From: Clostridia bacterium
GTDB taxonomy: Bacteria; Bacillota; Clostridia; Christensenellales; CAG-138
NCBI GenBank assembly: GCA_017509785.1
Contig: JAFWOT010000009.1
Coordinates: 6,596 to 70,595 of the forward strand
Direction of reading: 5' to 3'
DNA: 64,000 nt
Part shown: piece by piece, positions 2,325-11,243 of the stretch
Layout of the letters: each line of letters starts with the position of its first letter
How positions within the stretch are numbered: the stretch's first letter is position 1
Program-made: the position numbers and the translations under genes
The notes under the pieces: model-generated
Database searches by the model: none
The model's input: the letters and a program-made list of their open reading frames with translations, nothing else
What the model was told of the DNA's origin: nothing

Positions 2325-2843
2325 ATCGCAGCTAATGAATTGATGATCAATGAGCAGATCCGCGACCGCGAAGTCCGCCTGATAGGCGAGGACGGGGAGC
2401 AGATGGGCGTCGTTCAGATAGCCGTCGCGCAGAGAGTCGCGGAGGAAAGAGGGCTTGACCTTGTCAAGATCGCGCCGCAGGCGAATCCGCCTGTGTGCAA
2501 GATAATGGATTACGGCAAGTATCGTTTCGATCAGTCCAAGCGTGAGAAGGAACAGCGCAGGAATCAGACCGTCGTCGAAATGAAGGAGGTCCAGCTTTCA
2601 GCGACCATCGACACGCACGACATGGAAGTCAAAGCCAAGGCGTGCAACAAATTCCTCAAGGCGGGCAACAAGGTCAAGGTCTCCATCCGCTTCAGGGGAA
2701 GGCAGGCTGCTCACGGTGATATCGGCCTCGAGGTAATGAACACATTCCTGGAGATGGTTGCGGAGAACGCTGTCGTTGAGAAGCAGCCCAAGCAGGAAGG
2801 CAGGAACATGTACATGTTCCTCGCACCTAAGATCAACAAATAA
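2325..2843 (+). CDS. infC: Translation initiation factor IF-3 (probable ATC start)
   Basis: [36 protein letters not shown]; GGAGGTG lies 7 nt before an in-frame ATC at 2325. Confidence 0.95.
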
Positions 2844-2865
2844 TTTATTTAATGGAGGAAATCCC

Positions 2866-3066
2866 ATGCCGAAACTTAAGACCCACAGGGGCGCCGCAAA
2901 GCGTTTCAGCTTCACAAAGAGCGGCAAGATCAAGAGGGGCAAGGCCTATAAGAGCCACATCCTTACCAAGAAATCCACCAAGCGTAAGCGCAACCTGCGC
3001 CAGACCGGCTTCATTGCGGAAGAAGAAGCAAAGAAGATCGGCGCTCTGATACCGTACAAGAAGTAA
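2866..3066 (+). CDS. rpmI: 50S ribosomal protein L35
   Basis: [14 protein letters not shown]...HILTKKS; SD GGAGG; operon position. Confidence 0.96.
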
Positions 3067-3081
3067 GGGAGGAAATGAATC

Positions 3082-3441
3082 ATGGCAAGGATCAAGAGAG
3101 CAGTCAACGCCGCCAAGAAGCGTCGTAAAGTTTTTAAGCTGGCAAAGGGTTACTGGGGCGCCAAGTCGAAGCTCTACCGTGCTGCCAGCCAGCAGGTTAT
3201 GAAGTCCCTCGCCTACGCTTACGTCGGCAGGAAGCTCAAGAAGCGCGAGTATCGCCGTCTCTGGATCGCCCGTATCAACGCCGGCGCGAGGATCTGCGGC
3301 ACCAACTACTCCAAGCTCATCCACGGCCTCAAGCTCGCGGGCGTAGAGGTCAACCGCAAGGTCCTGGCGGATCTCGCCGTCACCGACATGAACGCCTTCA
3401 ACGAGCTCTGCAGCGTTGCCAACAAGGCGCTCGAGGCGTAA
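3082..3441 (+). CDS. rplT: 50S ribosomal protein L20
   Basis: MARIKR...AKGYWG...RLWIARINA...NRKVLADLA. Confidence 0.97.
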   Translation: MARIKRAVNAAKKRRKVFKLAKGYWGAKSKLYRAASQQVMKSLAYAYVGRKLKKREYRRLWIARINAGARICGTNYSKLIHGLKLAGVEVNRKVLADLAVTDMNAFNELCSVANKALEA

Positions 3442-3455
3442 ACCGATCGAAAAAC

Positions 3456-3485
3456 AAAGGAACGGTCGCTCCGATCGTTCCTTTT
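3456..3485. terminator. Probable bidirectional terminator between rplT and spoVAC
   Basis: AAAGGAACGGTCG-CTC-CGATCGTTCCTTTT between convergent genes. Confidence 0.7.
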
Positions 3486-3505
3486 CCATACAAAAAACTC
3501 CGGCG

Positions 3506-3985
3506 TCATCCGGCGCCGATCGCCCATGCGATGAGCCCGACTATCGCCGAGCTCGTTATCCCGTATACCAGAACCGGCCCCGCGATGGTGAACATCTGTG
3601 CGCAGACCCCGGTGACGATCCCCTCCGCGCGGTGCTCCATCGCGGGGGCGACTACCGAGTTTGCGAACCCCGTTATCGGCACGACGGAGCCCGCCCCGGC
3701 AAAGCGGCCTATCCTGTCGTAGACGCCTATCCCGGTCAGAAGCGCCGCGATGAATATCAGCGTCACGGAGGTGAACGCCCCGCGCGCCGCCTCGTCAAGG
3801 TGAAGTACGCTTCCTCCGAAGTCGCTTATCGCCTGCCCTATACAGCATATGAGGCCCCCCGAAACGAACGCGAGCAGACAGCGGAGCCGCGTCCTGCTCC
3901 GCGGCATGCGCTCCTTCACGAGCGCGAGGTAACGCGCCTGCTCCTTTATTTCGGCCGGGCCGATCTTTCTTTTCGGCTTTGCCAT
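3506..3985 (-). CDS. spoVAC: Stage V sporulation protein AC
   Basis: AFVSGGLICCIGQ, GVYDRIGRFAGAGSVVPITGFANSVV, MFTIAGPVLVYG. Confidence 0.88.
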   Translation of the reverse strand: MAKPKRKIGPAEIKEQARYLALVKERMPRSRTRLRCLLAFVSGGLICCIGQAISDFGGSVLHLDEAARGAFTSVTLIFIAALLTGIGVYDRIGRFAGAGSVVPITGFANSVVAPAMEHRAEGIVTGVCAQMFTIAGPVLVYGITSSAIVGLIAWAIGAG

Positions 3986-6901: not shown

Positions 6902-7612
6902 ATGGAAGCGACGACTATATTCGAGCGTAAGGAAATAAAGTATCATCTTACGAAACAGCAGCATGACGAGCTTCTGCGCCTCATTGCCGAACACATAGCT
7001 CCCGATATGCACGGGCTGACGACCATCTGCAACATCTACTTCGACACCCCCGATTCGCGCCTCGTCCGCGAATCGATAGAGAAGCCCTTATATAAGGAAA
7101 AGCTCCGTCTGCGCTGCTACGGGGTCCCGAATGCGGAAAGCCCCGCGTTTCTGGAGCTTAAAAAGAAGTTCCGCGGCATAGTCTACAAGAGGCGCGAGAT
7201 ACTCCCCTATGATGAGGCGATGGACTTCCTCGTTGGGGGCAAGCGCCCCGAAAGACGGAGCCAGATTTTCGAGGAGATAGATTGGGTCCTGCATTTTTAC
7301 AGAGGGCTTGCTCCCGCGATGGCTCTCTTCTACGATAGGATCGCCTTTGTCGGCGTCGAGGATCCGGAGTTCCGGGTCACTTTCGACAACAACATCCTCT
7401 ACCGTACTGAGGATTTGGATCTCTCCCACGGGGCGTACGGCACGCCGCTTCTCGATAAGGATACCTATATTATGGAGCTCAAGATATCCGAAGCTATGCC
7501 GCTCTGGCTGACGGAGGCGCTCGATAAGCTGAAGATATTCCCGGCGTCGTTTTCAAAATACGGCACGGCGTACGGGCAGCTCCTGCAAAGGGCGGAATTG
7601 ATAAAGCAATAA
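6902..7612 (+). CDS. VTC-domain (polyphosphate polymerase-like) protein
   Basis: ERKEIKY, NIYFDT, KEKLRLRCY, FLELKKK, RVTFD, MELK, SFSKYG. Confidence 0.88.
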   Translation: MEATTIFERKEIKYHLTKQQHDELLRLIAEHIAPDMHGLTTICNIYFDTPDSRLVRESIEKPLYKEKLRLRCYGVPNAESPAFLELKKKFRGIVYKRREILPYDEAMDFLVGGKRPERRSQIFEEIDWVLHFYRGLAPAMALFYDRIAFVGVEDPEFRVTFDNNILYRTEDLDLSHGAYGTPLLDKDTYIMELKISEAMPLWLTEALDKLKIFPASFSKYGTAYGQLLQRAELIKQ

Positions 7613-7655
7613 ATCAGAAAGGGCGGCCCCTTTCAAGGAGCCGAAGGAACGAAAC

Positions 7656-8348
7656 ATGATCTCGAACGGAATATTCACAAGCCTCCTCCTGCATGACGGG
7701 TACATCGTCCCCAACGCGGCGATGATAGCCATCTGCTGCGGCGCCGCGCTGGTGCTCGGTGTGCTGACCTCCATACTCTACATGTACAGGAACAGCTACA
7801 ATCGCGGCTTCGCGGTCGCGCTCGTGCTGCTGCCCGTCGTCGTGGCGGCGGTAGTCGCAGTCGTCAACGGCAATATAGGCATCGGCATAGGCATAGGCGG
7901 CGCGTTCGGGCTCGTCCGCTTCCGTTCCGCTCCCGGCACGGCAAGGGATATACTCGCGATATTCCTCGCTATGGCGGCGGGGCTCATCTGCGGCTCCGGT
8001 TACGTGCTGCTTGCTGCCTGCGTCGTGGCGTTCGTTTTCATAGTCGGGTTCATAATGCTCACCCTCGGCTTCGGCACGAGGAACATGAAGGAGCGCGAGC
8101 TCCGCATAACCGTTCCCGAAAGCCTCGATTACACCGATTCCTTCGACGAGGTCTTCTCGGAATTCCTCTCCGCCTGTGAGCTCGAGAAGGTCAAGACCAC
8201 CAATATGGGCAGCCTCTACAAGCTCTATTACCGCGTCACCCTCAAGGATCCGAAGCGGGAGAAGGAGATGATCGATAAGCTCCGTGTCAGGAACGGCAAT
8301 CTCGAGATCGTCTGCGGCTTCATCGATACCTCGAAGCCCGAGCTGTAA
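7656..8348 (+). CDS. DUF4956-family membrane protein
   Basis: VNGNIGIGIGIGGAFGLVRFRSAPG, KVKTTNMGSLY, LRVRNGNLEI; typical neighbour of VTC-domain genes. Confidence 0.85.
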   Translation: MISNGIFTSLLLHDGYIVPNAAMIAICCGAALVLGVLTSILYMYRNSYNRGFAVALVLLPVVVAAVVAVVNGNIGIGIGIGGAFGLVRFRSAPGTARDILAIFLAMAAGLICGSGYVLLAACVVAFVFIVGFIMLTLGFGTRNMKERELRITVPESLDYTDSFDEVFSEFLSACELEKVKTTNMGSLYKLYYRVTLKDPKREKEMIDKLRVRNGNLEIVCGFIDTSKPEL

Positions 8349-8600: not shown

Positions 8601-8625
8601 GCGGCTCCGTTTTCCCCGGAGCCGC
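8601..8625. terminator. Terminator-like hairpin after the radical SAM gene
   Basis: GCGGCTCCG-N7-CGGAGCCGC, followed by CTTATTTT on the minus strand. Confidence 0.65.
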
Positions 8626-8631
8626 TTCGCG

Positions 8632-9708
8632 TCATTGAACCTGTTTTGCGCAGGCCCGCATAAAACGCGGACTTTTGTTTTTATAAAGCGTTTCCGCCAT
8701 GCGGTCGGCGGCGGGTATCAGTGCGCGCTCATGCACGCACTGGACGGGCGGCACCTCGTGCATGTTCCCCGTCATCGAATAATTGAGGCACGCGCAGTGG
8801 TGGCGACAGCGTTTTTCGAGCGAACAGCCATCGCAGGAGGTCTCCTGCGCGAGCGAGGCGTTGTAGATCCGCGCCTGCGCCCGAGCGTCGATCCCGCTCC
8901 ACACGTCGCCCATCAGGTATTCCTTTACGGCGACGAACTGATTGCAGGGGTAGATCCGCCCGTCCGGGGCGATCGACGGCTGCTTTATCCCGAGCCTGCA
9001 CTCGATGCAGCGCCTGCCCTCCAGATGGGCGGATATCTTCGATTCGAAATTGAGCAGACTCAGAGGGCGCGGCGAATCATAGAGCTCCGCGCAGAGATCG
9101 GCAAGCGCCGCGTACTGCTCCCGCAGGACGGCGATAGAGCCATCGTCCCAGGCGTTGTCCGGACGATAGTCTATGGCGACGTTTATTTTTGAAAACCCCC
9201 GCTCGTAGAGCCATTTGACGGAATCAAAAAGCCTTGCGGCATTCTCCGGCAGAAGGGTCAGCATTGCGACCGCCCCTGGCTGATAGGAGAGCAGCAGATC
9301 GATCTTCGGCTCAAGCAGCCGCGCCGTGCCGCTCCCGTCCGGGAATACGCGCTGTTCGTCCTGCAGGAGCCCGTCGTGCGAGAGCGCGATGCTGACGTCG
9401 TTCTCGGCGGCAAGGCGCAGGAAGCTCTCGTCGAGCAGGAGCCCGTTCGTCGTGATCTTATATGAGAACTTCCCGCCGATCTCCCGGGTCCTGCGGGCGC
9501 AATCGGCGAAGACCCGCTCGATCACGCCGCGGCAAAGCAAAGGCTCCCCGCCGAAAAGCGAGAAGCCGTTCGTTTTATGCCCGTACGAAAAGAGCAGTGC
9601 GCAGGCGGCTTCCGCCGTGCGCGCTTCCATCCTTTCGGGGGAATGCGTTTCGTAGCAGTAGCGGCAGGCCATGTTGCAGTCCGCCGTCAGATGCAGGGTA
9701 AAATTCAC
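8632..9708 (-). CDS. Radical SAM/SPASM-domain maturase (358 aa, no N-terminal RRE)
   Basis: CNMACRYC, FGGEP, TTNG, SHDG; SPASM cysteines CIEC...IYPC...CDGC-x5-C-x3-CAC...C; GTG start with GGAGG 7 nt upstream. Confidence 0.9.
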   Translation of the reverse strand: MNFTLHLTADCNMACRYCYETHSPERMEARTAEAACALLFSYGHKTNGFSLFGGEPLLCRGVIERVFADCARRTREIGGKFSYKITTNGLLLDESFLRLAAENDVSIALSHDGLLQDEQRVFPDGSGTARLLEPKIDLLLSYQPGAVAMLTLLPENAARLFDSVKWLYERGFSKINVAIDYRPDNAWDDGSIAVLREQYAALADLCAELYDSPRPLSLLNFESKISAHLEGRRCIECRLGIKQPSIAPDGRIYPCNQFVAVKEYLMGDVWSGIDARAQARIYNASLAQETSCDGCSLEKRCRHHCACLNYSMTGNMHEVPPVQCVHERALIPAADRMAETLYKNKSPRFMRACAKQVQ

Positions 9709-10097
9709 GGCGTGACCTCCGCGTCGGGGAAGGCGACCTCGCCCATCCACTGAGGCTCGTCGGAGTCGTCCGGCACGGCCGTCCCGACGCAGGGGGAGGT
9801 CGCGTTCGGGTCGAGTGTGATCCCGCCCTTATAGTCCGGCGGAGCGGCCTGAGTCTCGTTCGGGTCGACGACAGGCTCGCCCATGTATTCGGGAAACTCG
9901 TCCGTCGGTGCGGGGGATACGACCGCGCCGCTCTCATCGATGGAGCCGGGATCGATCTGCATATCGCCGTCTATCCGGGGCTTGCAGCCGATGAGGCTTC
10001 CCGCGGCAAGCGCGGCGGCAGCCGCGAAAGCGCCTATCTTCGCGGCGGTCTTATCAGGGTAGGAGGGCTTGTAGCCGGTGAGTTTTTCGACTTTCAT
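9705..10097 (-). CDS. Small acidic lipoprotein with six Gly-centred repeats; candidate substrate of the radical SAM enzyme
   Basis: Leader MKVEKLTGYKPSYP, Ala-rich h-region, SLIG-C38 lipobox-like site, repeated xxG-x-hydrophobic-..-(D)P; stop overlaps the rSAM start (GTGA). Alternative start at 10163. Confidence 0.75.
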   Translation of the reverse strand: MKVEKLTGYKPSYPDKTAAKIGAFAAAAALAAGSLIGCKPRIDGDMQIDPGSIDESGAVVSPAPTDEFPEYMGEPVVDPNETQAAPPDYKGGITLDPNATSPCVGTAVPDDSDEPQWMGEVAFPDAEVTP

Positions 10098-10169
10098 ATG
10101 GGTATTCCCGTGCCTTTTTATCGCAAAGGCTTCCTTTCTTGCAGGATCGTTATGAGCCTTCATATATAT

Positions 10170-10208: not shown

Positions 10209-11243
10209 TTAATCCTCGTCCTCCTCGCGCCTGTCGTCCGCAAGCTCGACCACGCAGTCGGAAGTCCCCATTATAGCGCGGAGCTTCGCTTCGAGCTCGG
10301 CGGCGACCTCGGGGTTGTCCTTCAGGAACTGCTTCGCGTTCTCGCGGCCCTGGCCAATGCGCATATCCCCATAGGAGAACCACGCGCCCGTCTTCGAGAC
10401 GATCTTGTTGTTTACGCCCATATCGAGGAGCGAGCCCTCGCGTGAGAAGCCTTCCCCGTACATGAGGTCGGCCTCCGCAACACGGAAGGGCGGGGCGACC
10501 TTGTTCTTTACTACCTTGATGCGCACGCGGTTGCCGACGGCCTCGCCGCCCTGCTTCAGCACGTCCACCTTCCTCACGTCGAGCCTTATCGTGGCGAAGA
10601 ATTTCAGCGCACGGCCGCCGGTCGTCGTTTCGGGGTTGCCGAACATGACGCCGACCTTCTCGCGCAGCTGGTTGATGAATATGACGCAGCAGTTGGATTT
10701 GCCGACTATACCGGCGAGCTTCCTCAGCGCCTGGCTCATGAGCCTCGCCTGCAGGCCGACGTGCGAATCGCCCATGTCGCCCTCAAGCTCCGCCTTCGGA
10801 ACGAGGGCCGCTACGGAGTCGATGACTATGATGTCGACCGCGCCGCTCCTCACGAGCGTGTCCGCGATGTCGAGCGCCTGCTCGCCGTTGTCGGGCTGGG
10901 AGACGAACAGCGAATTGAGCTGCACGCCGAGCTTCGCTGCGTAAACGGGATCCAGCGCGTGCTCCGCATCGATGAATACCGCCATCCCGCCGAGCTTCTG
11001 CGCCTCCGCTATCATGTGGAGAGCGAGCGTAGTCTTACCGGAGGACTCCGGTCCGTAGATCTCGATTATCCTTCCGCGGGGGATGCCGCCGACGCCGAGG
11101 GCGTTGTCAAGCTCGATACAGCCCGTCGGTATGACGGAGACCTGTATCTTCTGCGCGGCATCGCCCATCAACATGATGGCGCCCTTGCCGAATTCCTTTT
11201 CGATCTGTGTGAGGGCAAGATCCAGTGCTTTTTCCTTATCCAT
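10209..11243 (-). CDS. recA: Recombinase RecA
   Basis: [38 protein letters not shown]. Confidence 0.98.

Follow-up and report, generated by a model that had tools for sequence, protein, structure and literature searches.

A radical S-adenosylmethionine (SAM) enzyme with a SPASM region, P0002, and a small putative lipoprotein, P0001, are encoded side by side in the stretch of DNA analysed here, which spans 64,000 nucleotides (the window) of contig JAFWOT010000009.1 from a Clostridia bacterium of the Christensenellales (assembly GCA_017509785.1). The locus is a real, conserved and unnamed enzyme–partner module of rumen and gut Clostridia. We propose that the pair is a hybrid between a lipoprotein system and one for ribosomally made, post-translationally modified peptides (RiPPs), with the mature part of the partner being modified, a reading for which we regard the case as evenly balanced. 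It is carried by the retention of a partner beside the enzyme across genomes, an invariant N-terminal motif of the partner that is predicted to dock on the enzyme, a near-invariant lipobox cysteine, and repeated glycine-centred units in the mature part.

Conservation of the enzyme–partner pair

A pattern scan of a species-genome collection returned 330 relatives of P0002, the best 80 of which were examined. Four had no upstream DNA, and the 76 loci with at least 400 nt upstream of the radical SAM gene were treated as informative. A partner gene was present at all 76, in 67 cases by the strict pattern, in eight as variant or frameshifted forms recognized by eye (L082, L091, L098, L101, L102, L104, L108 and L120) and in one (L088) downstream of the radical SAM gene. 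The distance from the nearest partner gene to the enzyme gene is −3 to ∼60 nt at most related loci, and two tandem partner genes precede a single enzyme gene at 22 of the 76 (strict pattern). Within the genus, an orthologue of the enzyme with 64–68% identity was found in 11 of 13 other genomes; none was found in G009 (93% complete), and G013 gave only a 29% ScfB-like match. All 12 loci of the genus, the window included, have a homologous small open reading frame (ORF) directly upstream of the enzyme gene, with two tandem copies in one genome, and recA adjoins the pair at 10 of them. Among 401 sampled genomes of the same order, the enzyme was found at E≤1e-45 in 19 genomes (7 of 174 genera), with an upstream partner at 17 of 17 parsed loci and one further locus that has a stop inside the enzyme gene.

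The hosts are rumen Christensenellales metagenome-assembled genomes (MAGs), Oscillospiraceae, Anaeromassilibacillus senegalensis, Pseudobacteroides cellulosolvens, Candidatus Formimonas warabiya and one Clostridium species, together with a single Phycisphaerae MAG and a single Armatimonadota MAG. The flanking genes vary between lineages, and hence the pair itself is the conserved unit. Short partners, the type found in the window, form 129 clusters at 50% identity among 1.84 billion representatives. Family members bear generic names or none, the public names of the enzyme relatives being only 'SPASM domain-containing protein', 'radical SAM protein' and 'uncharacterized protein'. An earlier interpretation of this DNA (the sequence-only reading) had raised, as a check, whether homologues keep an upstream partner with a YxPxYP leader and repeated glycine motifs. 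A partner is kept at all 76 loci, and the glycine motifs are largely confined to the short forms.

One in-frame stop each is present in three enzyme homologues (L063:2992-4041, L120:3501-4544 and L041, G231:C15:31600-32631), which may be pseudogenes or MAG assembly errors; at L063 and L120 the upstream partner gene looks intact. In the Phycisphaerae MAG the long-form partner (L098:2394-3526) is frameshifted, with the N-terminal motif and PxRW in 2394-2666 and the globular domain in 2492-3526. The enzyme and long partner of L115, a contig titled Barnesiella intestinihominis, group with those of Oscillospiraceae (branch length 0.03, beside L096), and the contig is probably mis-binned and not a Bacteroidota copy. 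At L029, L030 and L036 the gene after the radical SAM gene has LysM-like repeats, judged by eye, which are not conserved in other clades.

Partner proteins

All partners share a conserved N-terminal motif, an uncharged Ala-rich stretch and a lipobox Cys. Short forms (76–160 aa), of which P0001 is one, carry the motif MKxxKLxxYxPxYPxK (also found with Gly, MKxxKLxGYxPxYPxK) and have an acidic, Pro-rich tail. Long forms (∼230–340 aa) carry MxIKPVKxYxxPxYPxK followed by PxLLxxLPxRW, retaining P-x-Y-P, and have a ∼200-aa globular α/β domain that ends in a conserved helix, LRxQVRDFLxWLKAQGII. Hybrids, represented by the second copy at L087 and by L102, have the tail and then the domain. The n-region that carries the docking motif is ∼19 aa long in short forms and ∼41 aa in long forms.

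Residues Y9, P11, Y13 and P14 of P0001 are invariant in all 51 sequences of the short-partner alignment (A3), which comprises the window and 50 of 54 short-partner references and is without both L060 partners, L075 and a truncated long form in L119. The YxPxYP motif occurs once in a real ORF of the whole genome. Cys38 comes after the hydrophobic stretch IGAFAAAAALAAGSLIG, and by its pattern (K16 and K20, 17 uncharged residues, then L-I-G-C38) P0001 is a predicted lipoprotein precursor. A Cys follows the h-region in all 51 short partners and in 38 of 39 long ones (89 of 90 overall); three short forms with a Pro within the h-region were scored as misses by the script, although the Cys is kept. 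Long forms, aligned without L107 (A5), have canonical L-x-[GAS]-C boxes. With a lipobox Cys in 89 of 90 partners, the signal peptide would be expected to be cut off after export together with the docking motif.

Over the 51 short forms the tail consists of 15% Glu, 15% Pro, 10% Asp and 9% Gly, with 0.4% Cys, and the only cysteines of P0001 are Cys38 and a non-conserved Cys103. Both the lipobox-like Cys38 and the scarcity of Cys in the cores had been recognized in the sequence-only reading and hold across the family. A word-indexed search with P0001 returned five close relatives, all without a name, and in the ESM Atlas both partner types fall only in 'hypothetical protein' clusters.

The mature domain of the long forms has conserved segments HGxGRGSFGC, LSEEEA, LDGYD, FEFVS and VFYDP (for example, L109:2660-3487) and belongs to no Pfam or NCBIfam family. 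An AlphaFold2 model of the domain (pLDDT 84.9) had no match in the PDB by Foldseek at E≤0.001. In a wide VIA-align search the best Z was 5.6 (3s1s and 3hrl, restriction-endonuclease-like; rmsd 3.1–3.4 over 88–108 residues), which is within the range that VIA-align calls common, and no fold is given to the domain. Its Atlas clusters include Planctomycetota and Kiritimatiellota. The C-terminal helix of one long partner has a sub-cut-off PqqD match (E 0.072); this helix would be extracellular. Tandem partners are often of different subtypes (L052-L068 and others; L044 in G007), and long-form partners are often duplicated too (L087, L093-L095, L113, L114 and L116).

In a FastTree phylogeny of 74 enzymes, those with long partners form one group (29 long and 1 hybrid; support 97) and those with short partners fall in three. 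Since the tree was built quickly and has no root, with two long branches that join and close kin that share labels, we take this as clustering and not as co-evolution. Long-partner enzymes, which face the longer n-region, carry ∼14 extra C-terminal residues.

The radical SAM/SPASM enzyme

P0002 exceeds the cut-offs of the Pfam Radical_SAM model (PF04055; 51.4 bits versus 29.5) and of TIGR04085 SPASM (42 bits versus 27) and falls below that of Pfam SPASM (16.4 versus 21.5). The CxxxCxxC motif and full SPASM Cys set pointed out in the sequence-only reading were found and are invariant in all 74 enzymes of the family alignment (A4; without the redundant L060, L075, L104 and L107, without L063 and L120, which have an internal stop, and without L078, L084 and L111 at contig ends). 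The SPASM 7-Cys motif is matched by C237-x12-G250-x4-C255, C292xxC295x5C301x3C305 and C324, with C307 as an additional residue. The alignment has 42 invariant columns; W187, E327 and D335 are invariant, and A334, A338, L341 and F349 are at least 90% conserved.

In the scan against TIGRFAM/NCBIfam radical SAM families that the sequence-only reading had called for, P0002 reached no curated cut-off. The best family model was that of PapB (NF047865), with 187.1 bits versus a cut-off of 340 (relatives scored 232 and 146), followed by a nif11-type model (126 versus 519), the SCIFF maturase ScfB/CteB (TIGR03974; 114.6 versus 425), QhpD (104.5 versus 453) and the anaerobic sulfatase-maturating enzyme (anSME, TIGR03942; 57.2 versus 349.45, and 55.4 in the genome scan). 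When a profile of the 74 members was compared with solved structures, the best match was CteB (5wgg, E 2.5e-61) and the second anSME (4k37, E 5.8e-29); SuiB was not among the sequence matches listed. The profile aligns with CteB residues 99–445, that is after the RiPP recognition element (RRE) of CteB, and the alignment stops at profile position 334 of 351 (CteB residue 445 of 453). P0002 itself begins 10 residues ahead of the first cluster Cys. The enzyme is thus without an N-terminal RRE, as had been claimed from the sequence alone.

C307 is unmatched in CteB, which has Ala at the aligned position. PqqE has a CxC pair at auxiliary cluster I. The invariant SPASM cysteines number eight. According to the available text of a published paper, an open auxiliary-cluster site was proposed for sactisynthases on account of their seven Cys, and anSME, SuiB and PqqE are fully ligated (PMC6231123). 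The eight invariant Cys therefore suggest that both auxiliary clusters of P0002 would be fully ligated.

A separate ScfB-like SPASM enzyme of ∼450 aa is encoded in the same genome (G000:C8:303494-304573). It has 30% identity to P0002, scores 122.5 bits to the anSME model, which is below the cut-off, and is probably the SCIFF maturase common in Clostridia.

Predicted docking of the partner N-terminus

Structure prediction of the P0001–P0002 complex, with the 74-row enzyme alignment and the 51-row partner alignment as inputs, gave ipSAE values of 0.87, 0.89 and 0.84 in three runs and 0.00 in three controls. In calibration the mark was reached by 58 of 80 solved complexes and by 2 of 110 mismatched pairs, a guide that is only rough with custom alignments. 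The runs share at least 41% of contacts, and the pLDDT of the partner is 50–63. On the partner side the interface comprises residues 1–17, 19, 20 and 23, and on the enzyme side residues 187–189, 192, 228–231, 291–297, 319–343 and 353–357, the contacts within the C-terminal helices being at 328, 332, 335, 338–339, 341–343, 353 and 356–357. Tyr13 lies against enzyme residues 228, 335, 338, 339, 341, 342 and 353. Conserved positions of both proteins fall in the interface (Y9, P11, Y13 and P14 of the partner; W187, D335, A338 and L341 of the enzyme), and most of the enzyme side is at or past the end of the CteB alignment. C292 and C295, which are near the docked n-region, would be ligands of auxiliary cluster II, judging by their place in the SPASM motif.

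The N-terminal extension of the partner is thus the predicted recognition element, as the sequence-only reading had suggested for the leader, and the model suggests that the C-terminal helices of the enzyme stand in for the missing RRE. The nearest structural precedent is the SuiA leader, which binds SuiB without use of the SuiB RRE, as described in the accessible part of PMC6231123.

Glycine-centred units

The sequence-only reading had proposed six Gly units in P0001. All six glycines are where it had placed them (44, 57, 73, 91, 105 and 119); G57 and G105 fit the motif h-x-G-x-h-x-h only loosely. The repetition itself is real and enriched, since the motif occurs 185 times in the 51 short tails versus 24.6±5.0 times in 500 shuffles (maximum 40). 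Short forms have one to six copies, most commonly four, with a consensus of roughly E-L-V-L-D-G-E-V-A-I-D-E-P. The best-conserved units are the last before the C-terminus (G119 in P0001) and the first after the lipobox (G44). Both glycines are at least 90% conserved in the 51 short forms, and G44 is invariant in 13 of 13 genus-level partners. As a control, the first 92 residues after the Cys were taken from 91 crude lipobox ORFs of the same genome; 66 had no unit, 19 had one, 5 had two, 1 had three and none had four. The Gly units are not a general trait of lipoprotein linkers in the host organism. Similar units are present in tails or linkers of partners from three separate enzyme clades.

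A mapping of the short-form unit to the GSFGCxSVAPP or LDGYD segments of the long forms was tried and dropped, as the matrix score equalled that of shuffles. The top matrix positions are spread across many alignment columns, the commonest column accounting for 6 of 39 long forms. Linker copies such as PPLAGVPxPPE in one clade are an exception and score high (15–20).

Gene layout, export and expression

The coordinates, strand and overlap given for the 130-aa ORF in the sequence-only reading were all re-found (Table 1). The TGA of the partner gene (9707-9705) and the GTG of P0002 (9708-9706) form a GTGA overlap with three bases in common, and a GGAGG lies seven bases 5′ of the GTG. The pair sits downstream of recA (10209-11243), its upstream neighbours being recA, cinA, pgsA and rimO, and on the minus strand the terminator scan listed no terminator-like site between recA and the partner gene. 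Downstream of the radical SAM gene are convergent genes for DUF4956, VTC and M19 dipeptidase proteins. The VTC-domain and DUF4956 membrane-protein genes neighbour each other (6902-8348, plus strand), and a VTC-like ORF is near the pair in another genome of the genus too (L022). With housekeeping or convergent genes as its neighbours, the pair has no adjacent exporter, dedicated protease or sulfatase, in line with what had been read from the sequence. The absence of a protease or exporter would be explained by the lipoprotein signal peptide together with the Lsp (one match above cut-off) and Lgt (three matches) found in the same genome.

Table 1. Coordinates of the features of the locus in the window

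Feature	Position	Strand	Remarks
Partner (precursor) gene P0001	9705..10097	−	130 aa and stop; without Pfam or NCBIfam family
P0001 residues 1–17, MKVEKLTGYKPSYPDKT	10047..10097	−	Extended n-region with predicted docking ('leader') motif Y-x-P-x-Y-P
P0001 residues 21–38, Ala-rich h-region and lipobox LIGC (Cys38)	9984..10037	−	Cys kept across partners
P0001 residues 39–130, acidic Pro-rich tail of the mature part	9708..9983	−	Composition given over 51 proteins
Gly unit 1, IDGDMQI (G44)	9954..9974	−	Fits h-x-G-x-h-x-h
Gly unit 2, YMGEPVV (G73)	9867..9887	−	Fits h-x-G-x-h-x-h
Gly unit 3, YKGGITL (G91)	9813..9833	−	Fits h-x-G-x-h-x-h
Gly unit 4, WMGEVAF (G119)	9729..9749	−	Fits h-x-G-x-h-x-h; C-terminal-most and best conserved
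Radical SAM/SPASM gene P0002	8632..9708	−	358 aa and stop; GTG start overlaps partner stop
Radical SAM cluster motif, C11-x3-C15-x2-C18	9655..9678	−	Invariant in 74/74 family members
SPASM region, residues 237–324	8737..9000	−	Eight invariant Cys (237, 255, 292, 295, 301, 305, 307, 324; 74/74)
C-terminal helices, residues 326–357	8638..8733	−	Predicted docking surface for partner N-terminus
Terminator-like hairpin and T-run	8601..8625	−	Directly 3′ of the radical SAM stop; 9 pairs, 8 of them G-C

In three metatranscriptome libraries, drawn from three studies (sheep and other gut samples), contigs cover 9644-10152 with at least 95% identity and include the small gene. The ends of two contigs, at 10148 and 10152, hint weakly at a transcript start ∼50 nt 5′ of the partner ATG, although DNA carry-over is possible. 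No contig in the three libraries covers the body of the radical SAM gene (8632-9643), and contigs cannot show absence or level. A second terminator-like hairpin on the minus strand (9542-9567), ∼140 nt inside the radical SAM gene, has 11 pairs followed by TTTGCTTTGC. It could be an attenuator that sets a high ratio of precursor to enzyme, or be due to chance. The RNA-library contigs end short of this hairpin (lowest coordinate 9644).

Discussion

We propose the following sequence of events for a RiPP–lipoprotein module with a modified mature part. The n-region (MKxxKLxGYxPxYPxK) is predicted to dock in the manner of a leader, in the cytoplasm, on the C-terminal helices and neighbouring SPASM surface of the enzyme, and the hydrophobic signal sequence may be masked from Sec while the precursor is held. 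Reductive cleavage of SAM and abstraction of a hydrogen atom would then lead to modification of the still unfolded mature part, the likeliest targets being the repeated h-x-G-x-h-x-h units. Export by Sec, lipidation of Cys38 by Lgt and cleavage by Lsp would follow, and since Lsp cleavage would take off the leader, a dedicated protease or transporter would not be needed. The outcome would be an acidic, Pro-rich peptide that carries several modified units and is anchored by lipid at the cell surface. Because the tails are nearly free of Cys and the SPASM region has eight, a Cys-independent reaction, such as epimerisation, a C–C or C–O cross-link, or oxidation, seems likelier than a thioether. 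A fuller version, in which the pair represents the first radical SAM-dependent class of RiPP–lipoprotein hybrids, the n-region leader delays Sec while docked on a C-terminal helical extension that takes the place of the RRE, each Gly unit receives an undescribed Cys-independent modification, and sister clades mature a 200-aa surface domain, is more speculative, and we would lean against it holding in every part.

Several observations weigh against a modified mature part. The Gly units are missing from most long-form partners, and when a matrix built from 183 units was run over 39 long forms, the median best score was −3.7, no better than the −3.7 of shuffles. Either the core varies by clade, therefore, or the units are not the target. 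The nearest characterised families (PapB, SCIFF/CteB, QhpD and CXXX-repeat) are all makers of Cys thioethers, and the only conserved Cys of the partner is that of the lipobox. In the predicted complex, confident contacts leave out the active site and reach no further than residue 23, and the score is the model's own confidence, obtained from custom alignments. No tool gave evidence of any modification or of a residue facing the SAM cluster. An n-region of 19 aa exceeds classical lipoprotein patterns, the G+LPP pattern having at most 13 residues before the last Lys/Arg. Lastly, the RNA evidence consists of assembled contigs and is no proof of transcription or of relative level.

An unlikely, but not negligible, alternative is that the partner is a substrate whose target lies in the part shared by all forms, either the lipobox Cys and the first residues after it or the signal peptide, and that the tail or domain is unmodified. 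Cys38 might, for example, be joined to a nearby Asp or Glu carbon by a thioether of the kind that relatives of PapB, QhpD and CteB make. Short, long and hybrid partners indeed have nothing in common but the n-region motif, the h-region and the Cys, the unit at G44 right after the Cys is the most conserved after that at G119, and the enzyme is highly conserved (its 42 invariant columns in 74 sequences) despite the unrelated mature parts of its partners; the thioether chemistry of the nearest families extends to the nearest solved structure. However, a thioether on the lipobox sulfur would block Lgt, which is hard to square with the canonical lipoboxes of the long forms, and no fixed distance separates the Cys from the next acidic residue. 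Moreover, set beside the cluster ligation described in the available part of PMC6231123, the eight SPASM cysteines suggest that no auxiliary-cluster site would be open to a substrate thiolate, and the model places the docked n-region near C292 and C295, the auxiliary cluster II ligands, and away from the SAM cluster. The latter placement, with confident contacts limited to the cytoplasmic N-terminus, would also suit a partner that is a membrane tether or regulator, whose N-terminus recruits, inhibits or activates the enzyme and whose outside part is a sensor, the enzyme having another substrate. The outside parts of the partners are interchangeable (tail, globular domain or both) and no modification site is common to all partner forms, as such a role would allow. 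Yet the near-invariant lipobox Cys predicts cleavage by Lsp, which would split the N-terminus from the outside part and end the tethering, and the neighbours vary, with no second conserved linked gene that is a candidate substrate. The near relatives of the enzyme are all peptide or protein maturases, and the tandem partner copies resemble multiple precursors. We therefore hold a tether or regulator to be a little less probable again than a target in the shared part.

That the enzyme is an anaerobic sulfatase maturase or another characterised SPASM enzyme, with the small ORF as a chance neighbour, is highly improbable. anSME is the second-best solved match and is likewise without an RRE. Nevertheless, the TIGR03942 score is far below its cut-off, which no match in the genome reaches, and the only Sulfatase-family match in the genome is marginal and partial (27 bits, in a 155-aa open frame on contig C29). 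P0001 has no C/S-x-P-x-R sulfatase-type motif, and the association with a partner is kept at every informative locus. The sulfatase-maturase role was hence rejected.

Turning again to a RiPP–lipoprotein module, the sequence-only reading had put the system forward as a candidate for an undescribed one. The enzyme does belong to no characterised family, but a 2026 study demonstrated RiPP–lipoprotein hybrids (DAG-RiPPs), with MNIO enzymes as the only modifying class in the available text (PMC13056109). According to that text, DybA and NedA undergo triacylation and cleavage by signal peptidase II (SPII) after their cytoplasmic modification, and the mining pipeline covered only the MNIO family; the terms 'radical SAM', 'rSAM' and 'SPASM' are absent from the accessible part of the paper (PMC13056109). 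Open-access and bioRxiv text, supplementary tables being outside the reach of the search, yielded no account of a radical SAM enzyme with a lipoprotein precursor as its partner. The DAG-RiPP systems (DybA-DybH and NedA-NedBC) resemble the pair described here in having a precursor with an SPII signal and an invariant lipobox Cys beside a cytoplasmic modifying enzyme, no dedicated protease or exporter, and a modified peptide anchored in the membrane as the expected product; NedA also repeats its core motif (three EGKCG). They differ in using an MNIO with an MbnC/DUF2063-type partner protein, which is not present here, in place of a radical SAM/SPASM enzyme, and in being hosted by Bacteroidota and Neisseria rather than Gram-positive Clostridia. 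The cores of P0001 and its relatives are nearly Cys-free and are preceded by an additional n-region motif, the predicted docking element for the enzyme. For the DAG-RiPPs lipidation and modification were shown, whereas here they are predicted. The kind of system has been known since 2026, and novelty here lies in the class of the enzyme, its mode of docking, hosts that are Gram-positive and repeated cores free of Cys.

The radical SAM core and SPASM 7-Cys motif are shared with CteB, the thermocellin (SCIFF) sactisynthase, and with PapB. The PapB substrate, PapA, also has repeated core motifs, six in number, and the available text reports that full-length PapA loses 12 H with PapB and the one-motif msPapA 2 H (PMC12715619). 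In contrast to these enzymes, P0002 has no match to the first 98 residues of CteB or to residues 1–86 of PapB, the RRE (the latter range from the accessible part of PMC12715619). It also has the extra invariant Cys307 and a conserved C-terminal helical extension, scores far under the family cut-offs, and has a substrate candidate without Cys-X3-Asp or Cys-rich motifs, whereas PapB acts on substrates with Cys-Xn-Asp/Glu motifs and the SCIFF precursor contains six Cys.

SuiB, which forms the Lys-Trp cross-link of streptide in SuiA, has the fully ligated auxiliary clusters and Cys-independent chemistry that are proposed for P0002. Unlike P0002 it retains an RRE, and its substrate SuiA, a short peptide of the cytoplasm, comes with a dedicated protease/exporter. 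anSME and QhpD are SPASM enzymes that act on an export-bound protein while it is still unfolded in the cytoplasm, but the locus has no sulfatase or QhpC-type substrate, and its docking element is in the n-region of a signal peptide. As described in the available part of PMC6231123, anSME is in addition without an RRE and has fully ligated clusters. The bufferins, MNIO-modified RiPPs exported by Sec, likewise have Sec signal peptides and some protein-sized substrates; lipoprotein signals are predicted in ∼16% of Buf2, and it has been proposed that the signal peptide of bufferins stays masked until they have been modified (PMC12452194, accessible text). They differ in enzyme superfamily, in their Cys-based copper-binding cores and in their mostly Gram-negative hosts.

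If the proposal is true, the RiPP–lipoprotein idea would be widened from MNIO enzymes of Gram-negative bacteria to Gram-positive anaerobes and to the largest family among the radical enzymes that modify peptides. The pair would be a clean case of leader recognition without an RRE, through a predicted interface that is short and conserved on both sides, and, with hardly any Cys in the cores, the reaction may be new to SPASM enzymes. With 330 relatives among species genomes the family is not rare, and in uncultured rumen Christensenellales its product would be abundant at the cell surface.

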